36,945 nt of DNA. Origin: Ruminococcus sp. UBA7477 (GTDB lineage Bacteria; Bacillota; Clostridia; Oscillospirales; Ruminococcaceae). The DNA lies in NCBI GenBank assembly GCA_002479715.1, contig DLOT01000045.1:1-36945 (forward strand), given 5' to 3'. Below the pieces are notes generated by a model that made no database searches, had not been told where the DNA came from, and saw only the letters and a program-made list of their open reading frames with translations. The translations under genes were made by a program, and so were the position numbers. Within the stretch, counting starts at the first letter, position 1. Each line of letters starts with the position of its first letter. This document shows, one piece after another, positions 2,258 through 26,374 of the stretch.

Positions 2258-2315
2258 AATTTATCACAACCTTTCTTGAAATGCGGTAATTTACGGGCTA
2301 ATCCGCATTTTGCTA

Positions 2316-2344
2316 TTGATTTTTGTTTTGGGGTGTGGTATAAT
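2316..2344 (+). promoter_or_regulatory. sigma-A type promoter for the Rpn/PDDEXK gene
   Basis: TTGATT (2316..2321), 17-nt spacer, TGgTATAAT with the -10 at 2339..2344. It lies about 38 nt upstream of the ATG at 2382. Confidence 0.45.
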
Positions 2345-2381
2345 GGAATTGGTAAATGTAAAGAATAAGAGGTATATACCG

Positions 2382-3227
2382 ATGACTGATTTAAAAGCAG
2401 CACTGACTCCCGAAGAACAGCATAAAAAAGACCTGGAACGTTTGGAAAAAATGCGTCCTCTTGATGATGATCTTATGAGGGAACTATTCAGAAACAATAT
2501 TCCTCTCGCTCAGTTCGTTCTTCGGATTATGACCGGTAAAGACGATCTTGTAATTACATCTGAGGAAACACAGTATGATATGGAACGTTTGTTGGGTGCA
2601 AGGTCAATTTGTTTGGACGTTCTCGCAACAGACAGTGAGGGACGAAAGTTCAATCTTGAAATTCAAAGAGCTGATATGGGCGCAACACCTCAGAGAGCAA
2701 GATACCATTCCAGTGCAATGGATATTGAGTTTTTATCTGCAAAACAGAATTTTGATGAACTTCCGATTACATATGTTATTTTCGTAACTGAAAATGACGT
2801 GCGTAAGGGCAATCGTCCTGTTTACACGTTTGAAAGAGCAGATATACTTACAGGTGAATCCTTTGGTGACGGAGAGTATATTTTGTTCGTCAATGGTGCA
2901 TATACTAATCAAGAAGATAATTCAGATTTAGCCAAACTGATACATGATTTCAGATGCAATAATGCTGATGATATGTACTTTGATTTAATGGCTGAAAGAA
3001 CACGTTATTACAAGAAATCCCCGAAAGGAGTGAGCCATATGTGCAAAATTATGGAAGATATGAGAAATGAAGCTGCTAAGGAAGCTGAAACCCAAGAGAA
3101 AATCAGAATTGCACTCAGAATGCTTTCTGATGGAACATTGACGAACGAGCAGATTGCAATGTTTACTGCACTTCCTATCGAAAAGATCGAGGAGCTTGCA
3201 GCTCAGTTATCTTCTATTACCGCATAA
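2382..3227 (+). CDS. Rpn-like PD-(D/E)XK nuclease family protein ('putative transposase', PDDEXK_2-like)
   Basis: The core CLDVLATDSEGRKFNLEIQRA...ITYVIFVTENDV matches the D...E-x-Q/K nuclease core of this family. The C-terminal tail IRIALRMLSDGTLTNEQIAMFTALPIEKIEEL is also typical. I moved the start to the ATG at 2382 (AAGAGG 8 nt upstream) rather than the track start at 2310. Confidence 0.8.
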   Translation: MTDLKAALTPEEQHKKDLERLEKMRPLDDDLMRELFRNNIPLAQFVLRIMTGKDDLVITSEETQYDMERLLGARSICLDVLATDSEGRKFNLEIQRADMGATPQRARYHSSAMDIEFLSAKQNFDELPITYVIFVTENDVRKGNRPVYTFERADILTGESFGDGEYILFVNGAYTNQEDNSDLAKLIHDFRCNNADDMYFDLMAERTRYYKKSPKGVSHMCKIMEDMRNEAAKEAETQEKIRIALRMLSDGTLTNEQIAMFTALPIEKIEELAAQLSSITA

Positions 3228-3980: not shown

Positions 3981-4421
3981 TTACCGCAGATATTTGACCC
4001 ACCGATTTTTGAACTCATGAGGAATATTCTGTTTTTTGTTTCGATTACCTGTCCAATTCATACCGCCTGCCTTGCCCTCGTTTATGAAACCACTTGCTTT
4101 CAGACTTGTACCACTTTCGGAAATCAGCGTATATGTGATAGCTTTTGTATATCCCATTGCTTTAGCGATACGGCAGCAAGCGCCGTAAAGCATTGAACAA
4201 GCGTTATATGTTCCGTCAGTACAAACCCTGAGAATTTCACAGGTAAACCCGTTATCAAAATACCGTGAAACAGGTCTGCCACAGATAGCAACACCATGAA
4301 TAGTTTCTCCGTCAGATACAGCAATACAGAATTTACAGCCGACAGGTGCATTATGATGCCGATGATAGCGGTTTACATAGTCGCAGGCTGTTCTGTATGA
4401 TCGCTCCCGAATACCTTGCCG
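3981..4421 (-). CDS. XF1762-like small acyltransferase-fold protein; canonical start codon missing
   Basis: The track gives only 3981..4193. My translation shows the same frame open from 4421: RQGIRERSYRTACDYVNRYHRHHNAPVGCKFCIAVSDGETIHGVAICGRPVSRYFDNGFTCEILRVCTDGTYNACSMLYGACCRIAKAMGYTKAITYTLISESGTSLKASGF... The HRHH / CTDG / ACSMLY / GY..TYTL..E.GTSL.A.G pattern matches what I recall of the family. There is no ATG, GTG or TTG before 4193. An ATT sits at 4412..4410. Confidence 0.6.
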   Translation of the reverse strand, partial: RQGIRERSYRTACDYVNRYHRHHNAPVGCKFCIAVSDGETIHGVAICGRPVSRYFDNGFTCEILRVCTDGTYNACSMLYGACCRIAKAMGYTKAITYTLISESGTSLKASGFINEGKAGGMNWTGNRNKKQNIPHEFKNRWVKYLR

Positions 4422-4977
4422 TCATACAGTAAGACTTGTCCTGCCAAGCAATACCGCTTTCAAGCACATCTTTCAGCAGGATACCTTTGTCGGCAGGAAA
4501 AGAAGTAACAGGGATATTCGTCCAGTAACAGCGTTTGCGGTTCTGAGCCGATACCAAAGCTGAATTTATCATAATCGGCTCTACACCAAATCTCTTTGAG
4601 ATCTCGTCCTTGATATTTTGATGAATGGAGTAGTTATTTTCATAGAGAAAATACTTGCACTTGCTTTCATTCAAAGCTCTCACATACTCCATAAATAGCC
4701 TGAATCCCTCACCGTCAGAGGTGATCTCTCTGTTCTTTTTAGCCACGCTCCAGTATGTACAGGGGGAACCTCCGAGAAGAAGATCATATCCCTTAAACTC
4801 TGTAAAATCGCCGTCAAAAACATTCCCGTGATGAACAATATCGGGATAATTATTCTTTGAAACCGTGACAGCGTACTTGTCGATCTCAAAGGCATCATAG
4901 CACTCCACAGGCAGTCCGGCACGTTCAAGTGCCAGTCTGCCGCAGGAGATACCGTCAAATAAACTTAAAACTTTCAT
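4351..4977 (-). CDS. DNA (cytosine-5)-methyltransferase, C-terminally truncated (probable pseudogene)
   Basis: 208 aa. Motif I LSLFDGISCG, motif IV GGSPCTYWS, motif VI FLYENN and motif VIII QNRKRCYW are present. No target-recognition domain and no motifs IX or X (GNG). The reading frame ends inside the overlapping XF1762-like frame. Confidence 0.7.
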   Translation of the reverse strand: MKVLSLFDGISCGRLALERAGLPVECYDAFEIDKYAVTVSKNNYPDIVHHGNVFDGDFTEFKGYDLLLGGSPCTYWSVAKKNREITSDGEGFRLFMEYVRALNESKCKYFLYENNYSIHQNIKDEISKRFGVEPIMINSALVSAQNRKRCYWTNIPVTSFPADKGILLKDVLESGIAWQDKSYCMTARYSGAIIQNSLRLCKPLSSAS

Positions 4978-16042: not shown

Positions 16043-16062
16043 AACAAAAATGCGCAGACCTT

Positions 16063-16187
16063 AAGACAGGTACTCATAAAGAAGTTTTAGCCATAGCACT
16101 TATGATTTTCAGTCAAAAGTATTATGGCGTTTCTATTGACTTAATAGTTATTTGGTAGTATAATCCTAGTAAGAAAAATCAGAATTT
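16063..16187 (+). repeat. conserved 5' block, copy A (end repeat + hairpin + TTGACT-17-TATAAT promoter)
   Basis: I count 2 substitutions over 125 nt versus 24563..24687. Hairpin arms at 16090..16101 and 16117..16128. The -35 is at 16136..16141 and the -10 at 16159..16164. Confidence 0.9.
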
Positions 16188-16202
16188 TGAAGGAGAACTA
16201 TT

Positions 16203-16634
16203 ATGATTGATAAATCAAGAGAATACTGGCATGGAGATTCCGCCGATGACATTGATGAATTTTTAAGAGAATATTCTGAAATCGAAGCAATAGATGTAAA
16301 ACCTATAATTTGTCATTCTTGCGGAAATGAGCACCTTAATTTAAGAATTGATTATGACGAAGAAGCTATTCAAGTTAAATGTCCTAAATGTGGATATCAA
16401 AAAATAATATTGGATTGCGAGGAAGTATGGGAAGATGCAAATCCTCGATTAAGAAAGTGTCCGGAATGTAAATCCAAAGATTTCGATGTAAAAGTAGGAT
16501 TTGTACGACGAGAAAATGGAAGTGTAAAGTGGGTTTATATCGGAAGTCGTTGTACTAACTGCGGATTATTAGGTTCACATCTTGACTGGAAAATCAATTA
16601 CGAACCAACCAATGAAATGGAGAGCAACATATAA
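16203..16634 (+). CDS. hypothetical cytosolic protein with four CxxC pairs (two zinc-ribbons)
   Basis: 143 aa. CHSCG...CPKCG...CPECK...CTNCG. GAAGGAG RBS. AT-rich relative to its neighbours. Confidence 0.7.
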   Translation: MIDKSREYWHGDSADDIDEFLREYSEIEAIDVKPIICHSCGNEHLNLRIDYDEEAIQVKCPKCGYQKIILDCEEVWEDANPRLRKCPECKSKDFDVKVGFVRRENGSVKWVYIGSRCTNCGLLGSHLDWKINYEPTNEMESNI

Positions 16635-16732
16635 ATTCTGATTTATGTGAGCAATCGAATATTAACAATAAGCCCCGAAGCAATTATCAATAATTACTTT
16701 GGGGCTTAAACTTCTTTATGAGTATCGAACTA
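16630..16732 (+). repeat. conserved 3' block, copy A (multi-frame stops + hairpin + inverted end repeat)
   Basis: It aligns to 25321..25422 with about ten substitutions and one 1-nt gap, by hand count. Hairpin AAGCCCCGAAG (16670..16680) / CTTTGGGGCTT (16697..16707). Confidence 0.85.
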
Positions 16733-16768
16733 ATCACAAGTCCGCGTTTTTTGTACTTTTTATGACGA

Positions 16769-22615: not shown

Positions 22616-22682
22616 GTATTCACTTCACCGGATGCTCTTAAAGATCGTATGCTAGGGATCTATGAGCTATTCGGTGAGCAAT

Positions 22683-22775
22683 AATAACGGGGGCCGGATG
22701 TTTTTCGGCTGAGATAGAGCGAATCGACGCTCTGACCGCACCTGATATGGGTAATGCCAACGTAGGGACAATATG
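22683..22775 (+). promoter_or_regulatory. TPP (THI-box) riboswitch
   Basis: ACGGGGGCC...GGCTGAGA...ACC..ACCTGATATGGGTAATGCCAACGTAGGGA contains the conserved CUGAGA, ACCUGAU and GCGUAGGGA-type cores. It sits upstream of a thiamine-transporter gene. Confidence 0.85.
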
Positions 22776-22785
22776 TAGCATTTTT

Positions 22786-22842: not shown

Positions 22843-23424
22843 ATGAAAAACAAAAAACTTCTTCAGCTTGTTGAAGGAGCAGTTATGATCGCCCTTGCGA
22901 CGGTCCTCAGCTTTATACGCATCTACAAGCTTCCTTGGGGAGGCTCTATAACTCTTCTGTCAATGCTGCCGATCGCAATTTTCAGCATACGACATGGCGT
23001 TGCAAAGGGCTTAGGCGTAGCATTTTGCTTCTCCCTGATCCAGTTTATCCAAGGTATAACCGACGGACTTTTCGGATGGGGTCTGACAACTATGAGTCTG
23101 ATAGGCTGTATTCTCTTTGACTACATACTCGCATTCACCGTTATCGGATTTGCCGGTATTTTTCGTAAGAAGGGCGTGGCAGGCGCTGTTACCGGAACGG
23201 CGATCGCATTGCTGTTAAGATTTGTAAGCCATTTTGCTACCGGCGTTATTATTTGGAAGTCGTTCGGTGAACTGTGGGACGGATTTTCTACCGATAACAT
23301 CTATCTCTACAGCCTTCTCTATAACGGATCTTATATGCTTCCCGAGATCATCTTCACCTGTATAGGTGCAGCTGTGCTTTACTCTATCCCGCAAACCAAA
23401 AAGCTTCTCGCCCCGCAGGATTAG
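22843..23424 (+). CDS. thiT: ECF-type thiamine transporter S component ThiT
   Basis: 193 aa with about 6 TM segments. The N-terminus LVEGAVMIALATVLSFI is typical. It lies directly downstream of the TPP riboswitch. Confidence 0.8.
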   Translation: MKNKKLLQLVEGAVMIALATVLSFIRIYKLPWGGSITLLSMLPIAIFSIRHGVAKGLGVAFCFSLIQFIQGITDGLFGWGLTTMSLIGCILFDYILAFTVIGFAGIFRKKGVAGAVTGTAIALLLRFVSHFATGVIIWKSFGELWDGFSTDNIYLYSLLYNGSYMLPEIIFTCIGAAVLYSIPQTKKLLAPQD

Positions 23425-23627: not shown

Positions 23628-24500
23628 ATGACAAAAACACGCCTGATTATCCAAACCTTTGCCCCGCTTACCTTGGCGGGAATAATAAACGCTTTCGGTG
23701 TAACCTTTTTCCTTTACCCCGTTAACCTTTACGACTCGGGTATTTCCGGGACATCAATGCTGCTCGCACAGATAACTCCGCCAAATCTGTCTGTGTTTCT
23801 GATATTGCTCAACCTGCCTTTATTTCTCTATGGCTACAGAAAAATGGGATTACCGTTTACCGTGCGATCACTCTATGCAGTCGCTGTATATTCCTGCGCC
23901 GCATGGCTTATAACAGATATCCTGCCAATAGATGTAAGTATAGCGTCACCCTTGGCTGAGCAGGATCTGCTGCTCTGTGCGATTTTCGGCGGACTGATCT
24001 CCGGCGTCGGAAGCGGTCTTACAATACGCTTCGGCGGCGCTATTGACGGTATTGAGATACTCGCAGTGCTGTTTGCCAAAAGGCTCAGCGTTACTGTCGG
24101 CACATTCGTGATGAGCTATAATGTTCTTCTGTACATAGCTGCGGGCTTTATAAAGTCAAGCTGGATACTTCCGCTCTATTCGATCATCACCTATGCCGCT
24201 GCTCTCAAAACGGTTGACTTTATCGCCGAGGGTCTTGATAAGGCAAAGTCCGCAATGATCATTACCGATAAGCCTCAGCAGATATGTGAAGCTCTGTCCC
24301 AGGAATTTAAAAACGGAATAACTGTCATGAAAGCTCGCGGCTATTTCTCCGATGAGGAAAAAGTCCTGATCTATTTTGTTGTCAACAGATTTCAGATCAG
24401 CAGGGTCAGGTCTATCGTCCGCTCCTGCGACAACAAGGCATTCGTCACTATCACAGATGTTTCCGATGTTCTCGGAACAGACAAACAAAGCAACAAATGA
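23628..24500 (+). CDS. YitT family membrane protein (DUF2179 C-terminal domain)
   Basis: AGIINAFGVTFFLYPVNLYDSGISG is a YitT N-terminus. The C-terminus GITVMKARGYFSDEEKVLIYFVVNRFQISRVRSIV fits DUF2179. Start set at the ATG at 23628 (GGGAGGG RBS). The track start at 23526 lies in the upstream intergenic region. Confidence 0.85.
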   Translation: MTKTRLIIQTFAPLTLAGIINAFGVTFFLYPVNLYDSGISGTSMLLAQITPPNLSVFLILLNLPLFLYGYRKMGLPFTVRSLYAVAVYSCAAWLITDILPIDVSIASPLAEQDLLLCAIFGGLISGVGSGLTIRFGGAIDGIEILAVLFAKRLSVTVGTFVMSYNVLLYIAAGFIKSSWILPLYSIITYAAALKTVDFIAEGLDKAKSAMIITDKPQQICEALSQEFKNGITVMKARGYFSDEEKVLIYFVVNRFQISRVRSIVRSCDNKAFVTITDVSDVLGTDKQSNK

Positions 24501-24562
24501 TCGCTGCTTTTCCGACTGTGTAAAACACATTTCGTTAACAGAACATAAAAAAGTGTGGCATA

Positions 24563-24687
24563 AAGACAGGTGCTCATAAAGAAGTTTTAGCCATAGTACT
24601 TATGATTTTCAGTCAAAAGTATTATGGCGTTTCTATTGACTTAATAGTTATTTGGTAGTATAATCCTAGTAAGAAAAATCAGAATTT
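24563..24687 (+). repeat. conserved 5' block, copy B (end repeat + hairpin + promoter)
   Basis: I count 2 substitutions over 125 nt versus 16063..16187. The -35 TTGACT is at 24636..24641 and the -10 TATAAT at 24659..24664. Confidence 0.9.
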
Positions 24688-24714
24688 ATTTTGACTTTGA
24701 TTTGAGGTTACACT

Positions 24715-25332
24715 ATGAATATAATTCAATACTCAAGTAAGATAAAAGATTACTTACTTGCAAACGAAATAATTGATTTTACTGATAAATCAATAGCAAA
24801 TCTATCTAATGAGCTGCTAAATCTTTCAAAAGATAGGATAGATTTTATAAAGCAGACTTATGAATATGTTAGAGATAATATTTCCCATTCGGCGGATATA
24901 AATAACGATATGATCACCTGCTCTGCTTCGGAGGTACTGAAAGCAGGACATGGTATTTGTTTTGCTAAATCACATTTGTTAGCGGCTTTATTGCGTTATC
25001 AATCAATTCCTTGCGGGCTTTGTTATCAGAAAATTATTTTAGACGATGAAACTGCTCCTATATTGGTATATCACGGACTTAATGGTGTATATATTGAGGA
25101 ATGTGACAAATGGATACGGCTGGACGCAAGGGGAAATGTGAATGGCATAAATGCTCAGTTTTCAATAGAAACAGAACAGCTTGCGTATCCAATACGTTAC
25201 AATATGGGAGAACAAGACATATTCGTTGTGTATCCTGAGCCTGATGTGAAGATAGTTGAGCGTTTAAGGACAAATAAAACACGAACAGAGCTTTGGAACG
25301 ATCTCCCTACAGAGCTTGCGTATAAATTCTGA
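24715..25332 (+). CDS. transglutaminase-like (papain-fold) superfamily protein
   Basis: 205 aa. GHGICFAKSHLLAALLRYQSIPCGLCY holds the catalytic Cys region. YHGLNGVYIE...WIRLDARGN fits the His/Asp positions. Confidence 0.7.
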   Translation: MNIIQYSSKIKDYLLANEIIDFTDKSIANLSNELLNLSKDRIDFIKQTYEYVRDNISHSADINNDMITCSASEVLKAGHGICFAKSHLLAALLRYQSIPCGLCYQKIILDDETAPILVYHGLNGVYIEECDKWIRLDARGNVNGINAQFSIETEQLAYPIRYNMGEQDIFVVYPEPDVKIVERLRTNKTRTELWNDLPTELAYKF

Positions 25333-25422
25333 TTTATGTGAGTGATCGAATATTAACAACAAGCCCCGAAGCAGTTTTCAATAATTGCCTCGGGGCTAAA
25401 TTTCTTTATGAGTAGCGAACTA
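25321..25422 (+). repeat. conserved 3' block, copy B
   Basis: It aligns to 16630..16732. Hairpin AGCCCCGAAGC (25362..25372) / GCCTCGGGGCT (25387..25397) with one mismatch. Confidence 0.85.
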
Positions 25423-25471
25423 CACCACGCATTTTCGTTTTTTATACAGTTTTGAGCAGCATACTCTCAGG

Positions 25472-26374
25472 TCAAAGAGCTGTCGGGTCCTCTCCGAAAA
25501 ACTGCGGAATAAAAGCTTCATCGGCAGAAGCCTTCTCCTGAATAAACCATCTGAATCCATACTTTTCCGCTGCGTCCAGAACTCTGTCATACTCAAAGCT
25601 TGTGAGCCGCCTATTTATTTCCTTGTAGTCGCCGCTTTTGAAAACAGGCGTGTATTGACGCATTACGGAAAGGAAGATATCGTCTTTTGCAAAGCTTCTC
25701 CCGAGAAAATCCATTATAGCCGCTGAATCATCACGATGAGAAGGCAATACCAGATGTCTTACGATAACTCCCCTTTTCATCGCACTGTTTTCATCAAGAA
25801 CCGGCTTGCCGACCTGCCTTGCCATACGAATGACCGCCTCCGAAGCGACCTCAAAATAATCCGCCGCCCCGGAATACCTTTCCGAAAGCTCACTTGAATG
25901 ATACTTCAGATCGGGAAGATAAATATCAATATATCCGTTGAGCATATCAAGCGTTTCCGGGCTTTCATATCCGGAGCTGTTATACATGACCGGAATACTA
26001 AGCCGGCCCTTCACCCTGTCGAGAGCGCCTATCACCGACGGAACAAAGTGTGCCGCCGACACAAGATTTATATTGCAGGCTCCCTCATCTTGCAGTCTCA
26101 GCATGATCTCTCCAAGCTGTTTTTCGGATATCTCATAACCCTTGCCGAGATGAGATATCTCATAATTCTGGCAATAACAGCATCTTAGACTGCACCCGGA
26201 AAAGAAAACGGCTCCGCTGCCGTTTCCGGTGCAAACAGGCGGCTCCTCCCATTTGTGAAGCGCCGCCCTTGCTATTCTTATTTTATTACCTTCACCGCAA
26301 AAGCCCGCTGCAACACTTCTGTCAGCGCCGCACTTACGCGGACAAAGCTTGCAGTGTTCATATATATCATTCAT
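25472..26374 (-). CDS. radical SAM protein, PflX-like (putative pyruvate formate-lyase activating enzyme family)
   Basis: CKLCPRKCGADR...GFCG...HKWEEPPVCTGNGSGAVFFSGCSLRCCYCQNYEIS contains CxxxCxxC. Start moved to the ATG at 26374 (GGAG upstream), which gives an 8-nt overlap with the ispE stop. The track start is 26428. Confidence 0.85.
   Translation of the reverse strand: MNDIYEHCKLCPRKCGADRSVAAGFCGEGNKIRIARAALHKWEEPPVCTGNGSGAVFFSGCSLRCCYCQNYEISHLGKGYEISEKQLGEIMLRLQDEGACNINLVSAAHFVPSVIGALDRVKGRLSIPVMYNSSGYESPETLDMLNGYIDIYLPDLKYHSSELSERYSGAADYFEVASEAVIRMARQVGKPVLDENSAMKRGVIVRHLVLPSHRDDSAAIMDFLGRSFAKDDIFLSVMRQYTPVFKSGDYKEINRRLTSFEYDRVLDAAEKYGFRWFIQEKASADEAFIPQFFGEDPTAL

Follow-up and report, generated by a model that had tools for sequence, protein, structure and literature searches.

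A promoter-bearing, cargo-swapping family of probable mobile cassettes in Ruminococcus that appears to home to the loops of intrinsic terminators

The window analysed here is the whole of positions 1 to 36,945, forward strand, of contig DLOT01000045.1 from Ruminococcus sp. UBA7477 (assembly GCA_002479715.1), and it contains two copies of a short repeated element, termed copy A and copy B, each lying between a pair of convergent genes. Copy B occupies 24565–25420 on the + strand, with its junctions taken from a comparison of empty and occupied sites, and is bordered by a YitT gene (+) and a radical SAM gene (−). Copy A, a 666 bp element of the same family, occupies 16065–16730 (+) and is bordered by a CPBP/Rce1-like gene (+) and a DUF975/CmpB gene (−). 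These neighbour calls agree with an initial annotation of the window, in which the two copies had been described as one module with different cargo in the same convergent setting.

A repeat search of the window aligns 16063–16187 with 24563–24687 at 98 % identity over 125 nt, 16630–16709 with 25321–25400 at 89 % and 16702–16732 with 25392–25422 at 87 %, and each copy is closed by 22-nt inverted end repeats (TACTCATAAAGAAGTTTTAGCC / GGCTTAAACTTCTTTATGAGTA). In pairwise alignment the likeness breaks off on the left at ...CAGAATTT and resumes on the right at TATAAATTCTGA, the sequence between the arms being unrelated. The shared 5′ and 3′ blocks and the unrelated cargoes of the initial annotation are thus both borne out, and chance can be ruled out as the source of the likeness because the same blocks recur at approximately 42 loci from other genomes. 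The G+C content inside copy B is 0.30–0.36 against approximately 0.46 in the flanks, and is a foreign composition. It had also been suspected that the true ends lie slightly outside the 22-nt repeats, which proved correct: the element opens with GACAGG... at 24565 and closes with ...GCGAAC at 25420, its termini thus lying 2 bases inside the earlier limits of 24563–25422 at each side, and those of the family read GAC(A/G)GG...(C)GAAC. The weak similarity reported beyond the repeats divides into two parts. On the left, AAGACAGG consists of the last two A's of a duplicated target followed by the terminal GACAGG, and the right-hand CGAAC is the element end; the further right-hand similarity, CGTTTTTT(G/A)TAC, represents the T-tracts of two different host terminators and does not belong to the element.

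Once the right arm is reverse-complemented, the two arms align colinearly; they are inverted homologues of 95–125 nt, and the element is therefore a cargo held between long terminal inverted repeats. From outside to inside, the arms display a 28-nt outer repeat, a hairpin, a TATTG..AAT stretch and an inner repeat of 14–22 nt, which reads TTACTAAGATAAATCGGAATTT in the left arm and, in the reverse-complemented right arm, TTACTCGCATAAATCAGAATTT. In copy B the left outer terminal inverted repeat, GACAGGTGCTCATAAAGAAGTTTTAGCC, lies at 24565–24592 (+), its first 13 nt mirroring the last 13 nt of the element, and the right outer repeat, GGCTAAATTTCTTTATGAGTAGCGAAC, lies at 25394–25420 (−), where the likeness of the same element at two sites ends at ...TATCGAACTAAAA. 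The left-arm hairpin, GCCATAG...CTATGGC followed by TTTCTATT (24590–24635, +), was identified by RNA folding at −19.8 kcal/mol (z = −7.0) and is kept in 23 left arms. Its right-arm counterpart, AGCCCCGA...TCGGGGCT (25362–25397), folds on both strands, at −23.4 kcal/mol on the + strand (z = −5.9) and −22.5 kcal/mol on the − strand (z = −4.9), and compensatory changes affect four of its six core pairs across 39 copies. The two hairpins are unrelated in sequence and both are far more stable than shuffled controls. From these folds, the left hairpin would act as an inward-facing terminator or insulator against transcription arriving from YitT, and the right as a bidirectional terminator used by the cargo (+ strand) and by the radical SAM gene (− strand).

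The promoter that had been proposed at 24636–24664 (+) is indeed predicted there, with TTGACT and TATAAT separated by a 17-nt spacer and 11 of 12 positions agreeing with the consensus. Its −35 TTGAC is invariant in all 23 left arms, which come from different genomes, and 19 extra nt in the left arm, not found in the right arm, create the −10 box; the best explanation has the left arm evolving what is predicted to be a strong σ70-type promoter. There follows the leader, or left inner inverted repeat, CCTAGTAAGAAAAATCAGAATTT (24665–24687, +), which is the reverse complement of 25324–25345 except for a bubble of 3–4 nt, constitutes the last conserved stretch before the cargo and includes the predicted transcription start. 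The variable cargo region (24688–25320, +) brings its own Shine–Dalgarno sequence, GAGG at 24704–24707, together with most of the open reading frame (ORF) at 24715–25332, whose final four codons and TGA stop fall in the trailer. This trailer, the right inner inverted repeat TATAAATTCTGATTTATGTGAGTGA (25321–25345, +), has stops in all three frames (TAA, TGA and TGA in copy B; TAA, TGA and TAA in the consensus TAAATTCTGATTTATGCGAGTAA), and many cargo ORFs, including that of copy B, terminate on them. No Rfam match was found in 24500–25500 at E ≤ 1. Pairing of leader and trailer as a 5′–3′ clamp on the mRNA finds no support, because changes across 23 copies are not compensated, and variation there is low. 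By eye, the inner repeat agrees with a CodY box at 8 of 15 positions and does not have the 11-6-11 layout of a dif/Xer site, and neither identity was retained.

The cargo of copy B is a 205-aa protein with a Transglut_core domain (Pfam PF01841, E = 1.4e-11), in accordance with the transglutaminase-like, papain-fold assignment of the initial annotation. It has 6687 homologues at E ≤ 1e-10, with approximately 70 % identity across Clostridia; searches of solved structures, NCBIfam and PADLOC gave no match to it, and an exact-protein look-up gave no record for either this protein or its radical SAM neighbour. The copy A cargo (16203–16634, +; 143 aa) had been called a Zn-ribbon protein; it is rich in cysteine, and Zn-ribbon models matched it weakly, below their cut-offs.

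That the module recurs with other cargo in other genomes had been anticipated, and is the case. A scan for exact matches to CTCATAAAGAAGTTTWAGCC, with one genome per species, produced 46 loci, approximately 42 of which were judged to be real; they are spread over approximately 25 genomes of Ruminococcus and other Clostridia. The carriers are nearly all Ruminococcus, Oscillospiraceae and other Clostridia genomes from gut and rumen samples, several with multiple copies, up to five loci per genome. The 22 complete elements delimited by BLAST with both blocks span 433–1669 bp, each with a different and unrelated ORF, or two ORFs, oriented with the promoter, and this orientation holds in 24 of 24 complete elements. 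In a Pfam census of approximately 57 cargo proteins there were SUKH/SMI1, Imm5-like and WapI immunity proteins, GNAT acetyltransferases (six) and alpha/beta hydrolases (five), along with CPBP proteases, TipAS/MerR, MatE, DUF3267, SF0329 and NUDIX families, and no transposase or recombinase. These cargoes are for the most part accessory genes of immunity, resistance and detoxification type.

Some further observations concern the limits of this distribution. Two copies (L019 and L039; locus numbers of the searches are given where needed) lie on contigs binned as Alistipes (Bacteroidota), representing either mis-binning or cross-phylum transfer, and in L019 the left arm is diverged and the promoter block missing. 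A conspecific contig with copy B, L059, ends inside the 3′ arm (L059:3607–3663). Copy numbers from assembled genomes are probably underestimates, because contig breaks in a multi-copy repeat are expected in short-read assemblies. What looked like a solo end in L017 proved to be a chance match within a gene.

Immediately beyond the ends of every copy, the left flank is the reverse complement of the right; an A-tract and a T-tract enclose the pair, whose sequence differs without relation from one locus to the next (for example TTGCCGCACCC/GGGTGCGGCAG, GGACGTTTC/GAAACGTCC and GCTCACC/GGTGAGC). The arrangement of A-tract and stem arm is present at 21 of 21 non-redundant copies, and when these 21 true flank pairs are joined their mean fold energy is −13.8 kcal/mol, whereas 420 mismatched pairs average −6.6 kcal/mol (Mann–Whitney p = 2.8e-8). 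The neighbouring genes are convergent at 16 of the 19 complete copies for which both could be called. At copy B, the 5′ half of the host bidirectional terminator, an A-tract and the stem arm GTGTGG (24547–24558, +), is target DNA complementary to CCACGC at 25425–25430. Next to it stands the left copy of the duplicated target, TAAA (24561–24564), as placed by the empty and occupied sites L054 and L049; the right copy (25421–25424) is degenerate, TACA rather than TAAA, and adjoins the 3′ half of the terminator, in which the stem arm CCACGC precedes the T-tract ATTTTCGTTTTTT (25425–25443, +). The joined flanks of copy B form a hairpin of −9.1 kcal/mol. For copy A, the duplicated target is TAA (16062–16064 and 16731–16733), the host terminator arms are GCGCAGAC (16052–16059) and GTCCGCG (16740–16746), and the rebuilt terminator folds at −12.0 kcal/mol.

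A site next to a fused MFS/spermidine synthase gene, found through the orthologues of that gene, exists in both empty and occupied states. The empty contigs, L054–L056, have an intact hairpin, AGCGGCTCCG-GATAAA-CGAAGCCGCT, with a T-run, and in the occupied contigs, L049–L053, L041 and L020, the element lies in that very loop between two copies of TAAA. At this one site TAAA is found once in L054 and on both sides of the element in L049 and L020, and it is from the comparison of these orthologous sites that the termini and the TAA(A) duplication were assigned. The earlier proposal that convergent-terminator regions are targeted is thereby upheld, on the strength of the convergent neighbours, the flanks that rebuild a hairpin and the empty site that displays it intact. 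Given this analogous empty site and the complementary flanks of every copy, copy B is shown by analogy to sit in the loop of the bidirectional terminator shared by YitT and the radical SAM gene, with TAA(A) duplicated, and the empty form of its site is predicted to read AAAAAAGTGTGGCATAAAACCACGCATTTTCGTTTTTT. An insertion of another kind occurs in the same neighbourhood: in some contigs of the R. flavefaciens group (L057, L058, L188, L190 and L191) an element that encodes a large serine recombinase lies inside the Mn-catalase gene adjoining the cassette site, approximately 150–190 nt downstream of the spermidine synthase stop, with the junction ...GCCGAAACG / AACAAAATGG.

L035 and L046, which are unrelated sites, have in common a two-gene cargo together with the right arm (93.4 % identity over 1335 nt), and the likeness stops at the terminus ...TATCGAACTAAAA. 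The presence of the same element at unrelated sites supports mobility of the element as a whole. Cargo also differs between occupants of a single site: next to the spermidine synthase gene there are three cargo states, with a 381-aa protein in L020, an unrelated 120-aa protein in L021 and none in L041 and L049, and an odd right terminus, TATCCCTC, marks the platform in all three. L020 and L041/L049 share a deletion in the left hairpin, and L021 is without a left end. Between L020 and L021 the distal right arm is alike and the cargo-proximal part different, as expected for crossovers within the arm. Cassette shuffling, which had been raised as a possibility, is therefore shown at one orthologous site.

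A further sign of traffic between copies comes from the comparison of copy B in the window with that in the conspecific contig L059, for which identity is 98.8 % in the flanks, 98.9 % in the cargo and 98.2 % in the 3′ arm, and 92 % with a 10-nt gap in the 5′ arm. Within the window, just 2 of 123 positions distinguish the 5′ arm of copy A from that of copy B. The 5′ arm of copy B has evidently been overwritten from another copy by gene conversion, which is direct evidence of recombination between arms. The 5′ block had been described as the better conserved of the two, and its higher identity between A and B is real; the stronger constraint that this might imply is not, since the near-identity is put down to recent gene conversion.

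The element is probably a non-autonomous transposable element with long inverted ends and one passenger gene, of the mobile insertion cassette (MIC) type, and we are fairly confident in this assignment. Insertion would split the host terminator, for which reason the element's own hairpins are thought to take over, the left one stopping YitT read-through and insulating the promoter, and the right one ending both the cargo and the radical SAM transcripts. The element would in this manner constitute a self-contained, insulated expression unit at a harmless site. Movement of the whole is attributed, because of the inverted ends and the 3–4-bp target duplication, to a trans-acting transposase encoded elsewhere, for which a DDE type making a 3–4-bp TAA duplication seems likeliest; the TAA/YTAR-like target recalls the IS5 superfamily, which we take as a lead only. 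Cargo is replaced within resident elements, most economically through homologous recombination, or gene conversion, of arms belonging to different copies; recombination between arms is the probable route, and conversion from copy to copy is documented in this genome. The interpretation given in the initial annotation is essentially right, and the elements are, we believe, a terminator-loop-homing, self-insulated, cargo-swapping family of mobile cassettes in Ruminococcus.

Several points weigh against this account. The empty and occupied states are documented by a single pair, with none for copy B itself, because in L047, the closest relative of the window (90.5 % DNA identity), synteny breaks down precisely at the stop codon of the radical SAM gene, and L048 too is rearranged; an all-against-all flank search of the first 46 loci likewise found no empty site. 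The left duplicate is often AAA or CAA instead of TAA, and a site-specific recombination could just as well have the duplicated TAA as its core. Homologous recombination fits poorly where cassettes share just the inner repeat of 14–18 nt (L060, L093/L123/L185, L110/L157 and L128/L183). Finally, no gene bounded by the same 28-nt repeats was present in approximately 190 loci, the window, or plasmid, phage and viral collections, in a search that did not extend to diverged ends in whole genomes. No version with a transposase came to light in the regions upstream of right ends for which a left arm was not detected, among the cargo ORFs or anywhere in the window; the element had no match among plasmids, phages and viruses, and neither the window nor the neighbourhood of the copies examined contained a recombinase. 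The one recombination-type gene in the window (2310–3227, +) encodes a 305-aa protein of the PD-(D/E)XK nuclease family 'transposase', Rpn/YhgA-like (PF12784, E = 4.5e-9); no element ends flank it, and it shows no link to the element.

Of the alternatives, the one that survives best has the inner repeats (leader ATAAATCGGAATTT, trailer AAATTCTGATTTAT) serving as recombination sites for a putative dedicated recombinase, in the manner of an integron or a dif module, by which promoterless ORF cassettes would pass between expression platforms, the long-ended elements being just one kind of platform; we regard it as doubtful, but it does address the 14–18-nt sharing noted above, a shared flank too short for efficient RecA-dependent recombination. 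A version of the copy B cargo with 92.4 % DNA identity is present in L060 (2942–3631) without outer arms, near genes for type IV secretion system coupling and ClpP and ahead of pfs-luxS, with the likeness running exactly from TAAGATAAATCGGAATTT to AAATGCTGATTTA. Cargo borders are sharp to the nucleotide, falling just upstream of the Shine–Dalgarno sequence and at the stop codon supplied by the trailer, and in most copies the leader differs from the reverse-complemented trailer by a G in place of an A. Moreover, the leader/trailer motif TAAGATAAATCRGAATTT ... AAATTCnnnTTTA brackets genes without outer arms in ten metagenome loci (L093, L123, L185, L110, L157, L128, L183, L113, L124 and L161), and among these the same upstream context and leader are followed by different genes in L093/L123 and L185, in L110 and L157, and in L128, L183 and L113. 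Such arm-less cases may be decayed elements or true cassette exchange.

Against such a system, the inner sites are inverted and would produce inversion, not excision, yet inverted cargo is found in none of the 24 complete elements. There is no recombinase in or next to any copy examined, the borders, as read from the sequence, do not have the integron core GTTRRRY, and the breakpoints at the site with the best documentation are compatible with crossovers within the arms. A scan of metagenomes with the leader 18-mer gave at least 120 loci; the matches among the loci listed comprise diverged elements, unrelated coding regions and sets of contigs in which a shared upstream context and leader precede different genes, and chance occurrences lie in hsdS and in a conserved gene group, so that some of the arm-less set may be noise or decay. 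A suspected tandem cassette array at a homologue of the copy B cargo (L061/L066) came to one good motif match, with 0.6 expected by chance, and is too weak to count as evidence. An inversion between L154 and L082 that resembled a cargo switch is instead a shufflon of a Type I restriction hsdS specificity gene, in which a 741-nt segment (L154:−78..+760 relative to the motif, compared with L082) occurs in both orientations in different metagenome contigs; its inverted repeats encode LNSDLS and include the leader 18-mer. Two other arrangements of the motif were recorded. In L150:1372–1636 and L187:3507–3650, leader/trailer pairs enclose, in place of a gene, G+C-rich, highly structured, non-coding inserts of 126–218 nt. 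In L129 two units are apparently fused in tandem, since a trailer, AGATTCTGATTTATGCGAGTAAT, immediately precedes the promoter and leader of a further unit, at approximately 100 nt upstream of that leader (4137).

Movement through single-stranded DNA by an HUH (Y1) transposase, as for IS200/IS605, in which subterminal hairpins would direct the element into extruded terminator hairpins, is very unlikely. It would draw together the stable hairpins just inside both ends and a target that is itself a hairpin, and IS200 has a terminator-like hairpin at its left end. However, IS200/IS605 elements lack both terminal inverted repeats and target duplication, and the family described here has 28-nt repeats and a duplicated target; its two hairpins are unrelated in sequence, whereas IS200/IS605 use similar ones at both ends; and no Y1 transposase turned up in any cargo. 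That the blocks are not mobile at all, being promoter and terminator regions conserved among duplicated host genes, with a coincidental resemblance of the flanks, would suit the missing transposase and the fixation of both window copies in L059, the only conspecific contig available, but is hardly credible in view of the empty orthologous site, the same element at unrelated sites, approximately 42 copies in different contexts with unrelated cargo, the locus-specific complementarity of the flanks and the low G+C content inside the element.

If the reading as a non-autonomous, terminator-directed cassette is correct, a major group of fibre-degrading bacteria of the gut and rumen would spread accessory genes, among them those for immunity proteins, acetyltransferases, hydrolases and efflux or resistance regulators, on miniature, ready-to-express units that use terminator loops as safe landing sites and mend the termination they disrupt. 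The family would provide a concrete, testable case of structure-directed target choice, namely an intrinsic terminator loop with a TAA core, and would explain strain-variable single genes between convergent genes that are otherwise annotated as ordinary intergenic regions. Its conserved promoter, leader, three-frame stops and bidirectional terminators are possible parts for Ruminococcus genetics. The inner repeat may point to an exchange of cassettes that goes further than homologous recombination, and one may tentatively suggest, as a possibility that is improbable on present evidence, that gut and rumen Clostridia have a previously unrecognised exchange system functionally analogous to integrons, in which promoterless, single-ORF cassettes delimited by leader and trailer would be swapped among expression platforms by a putative recombinase; the most elaborate such platform would be the mobile, self-insulated promoter/terminator unit that homes to terminator loops.

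Two features elsewhere in the window deserve brief mention. The sole Rfam match in the window is a thiamine pyrophosphate (TPP) riboswitch (RF00059, 55.3 bits; 22677–22785, +), located upstream of a ThiT/YuaJ-type thiamine transporter gene (22843–23424). At 4351–4977 (−), a 208-aa ORF has a match to the C-5 cytosine DNA methylase profile that is confined to its first half (positions 1–157 of 324), and may be a truncated or split methylase gene.

With regard to known systems, full-text literature searches yielded no description of such elements, and no natural insulated expression cassette of this form is known to us. Integron cassettes are similar in being compact, single-ORF units with sharp borders and short inverted motifs, a promoter in the platform and exchange of cargo at a fixed platform, as well as in a cargo rich in acetyltransferases, immunity genes and uncharacterised genes. 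They differ in that here there is no IntI, attI or attC core (GTTRRRY/RYYYAAC) and arrays are not demonstrated, and in that each cassette has its own platform, which is itself mobile. The cargo stands between ...ATAAATCGGAATTT and (T)AAATTCTGATTTAT, neither of which has GTTRRRY, and no IntI tyrosine recombinase or attI was found within the 37 kb of the window or beside those copies that were examined; to our knowledge, integrons have not been reported in Firmicutes. The pdif (Xer) modules of Acinetobacter plasmids are comparable as discrete gene modules with short inverted sites, varied contexts and an unresolved mechanism of movement, but the inner repeats, on a reading of their sequence, have neither the 11-6-11 layout nor a conserved XerD arm, and the present elements are chromosomal and belong to Clostridia. 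An IS200/IS605-type element would have no inverted ends, no duplication and similar hairpins, none of which is the case, and the constant promoter orientation of cargo in 24 of 24 complete elements does not suit an inverton.

For the target, the closest parallels are IS1272/TnSha1 of the IS1182 family in staphylococci, which insert into terminator hairpins without a primary-sequence consensus (PMC4923244), and IS1397 and ISKpn1, which insert into repetitive extragenic palindromes (REPs; PMC1525189); in these, as here, the target is recognised by structure and not by sequence. IS1272 cuts the stem and deletes part of the hairpin with no duplication (PMC4923244), whereas the Ruminococcus elements leave the stem intact, lie in the loop and duplicate TAA(A), so that the stem insertion, partial deletion and lack of duplication typical of the IS1182 family are not seen. 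All of these insertion sequences, furthermore, encode their own transposase, and REPs are repeated sequences as opposed to unique terminators. The resemblance is greatest to MICs (e.g. MIC231 of the Bacillus cereus group) and MITEs (miniature transposable elements with inverted repeats), which also have inverted ends, no transposase, a short target duplication, unrelated passenger genes, multiple copies and a presumed mobilisation in trans; terminal inverted repeats, the lack of an internal transposase, a target duplication relative to an empty site and occurrence at multiple sites were all found here. In comparison with MICs and MITEs, the Ruminococcus family has no known cognate insertion sequence, and is distinguished by a single, swappable ORF with sharp borders, by composite ends of 95–125 nt, in place of a known insertion sequence's short ends, with a predicted promoter, insulating hairpin and bidirectional terminator, and by a target that is the loop of an intrinsic terminator.

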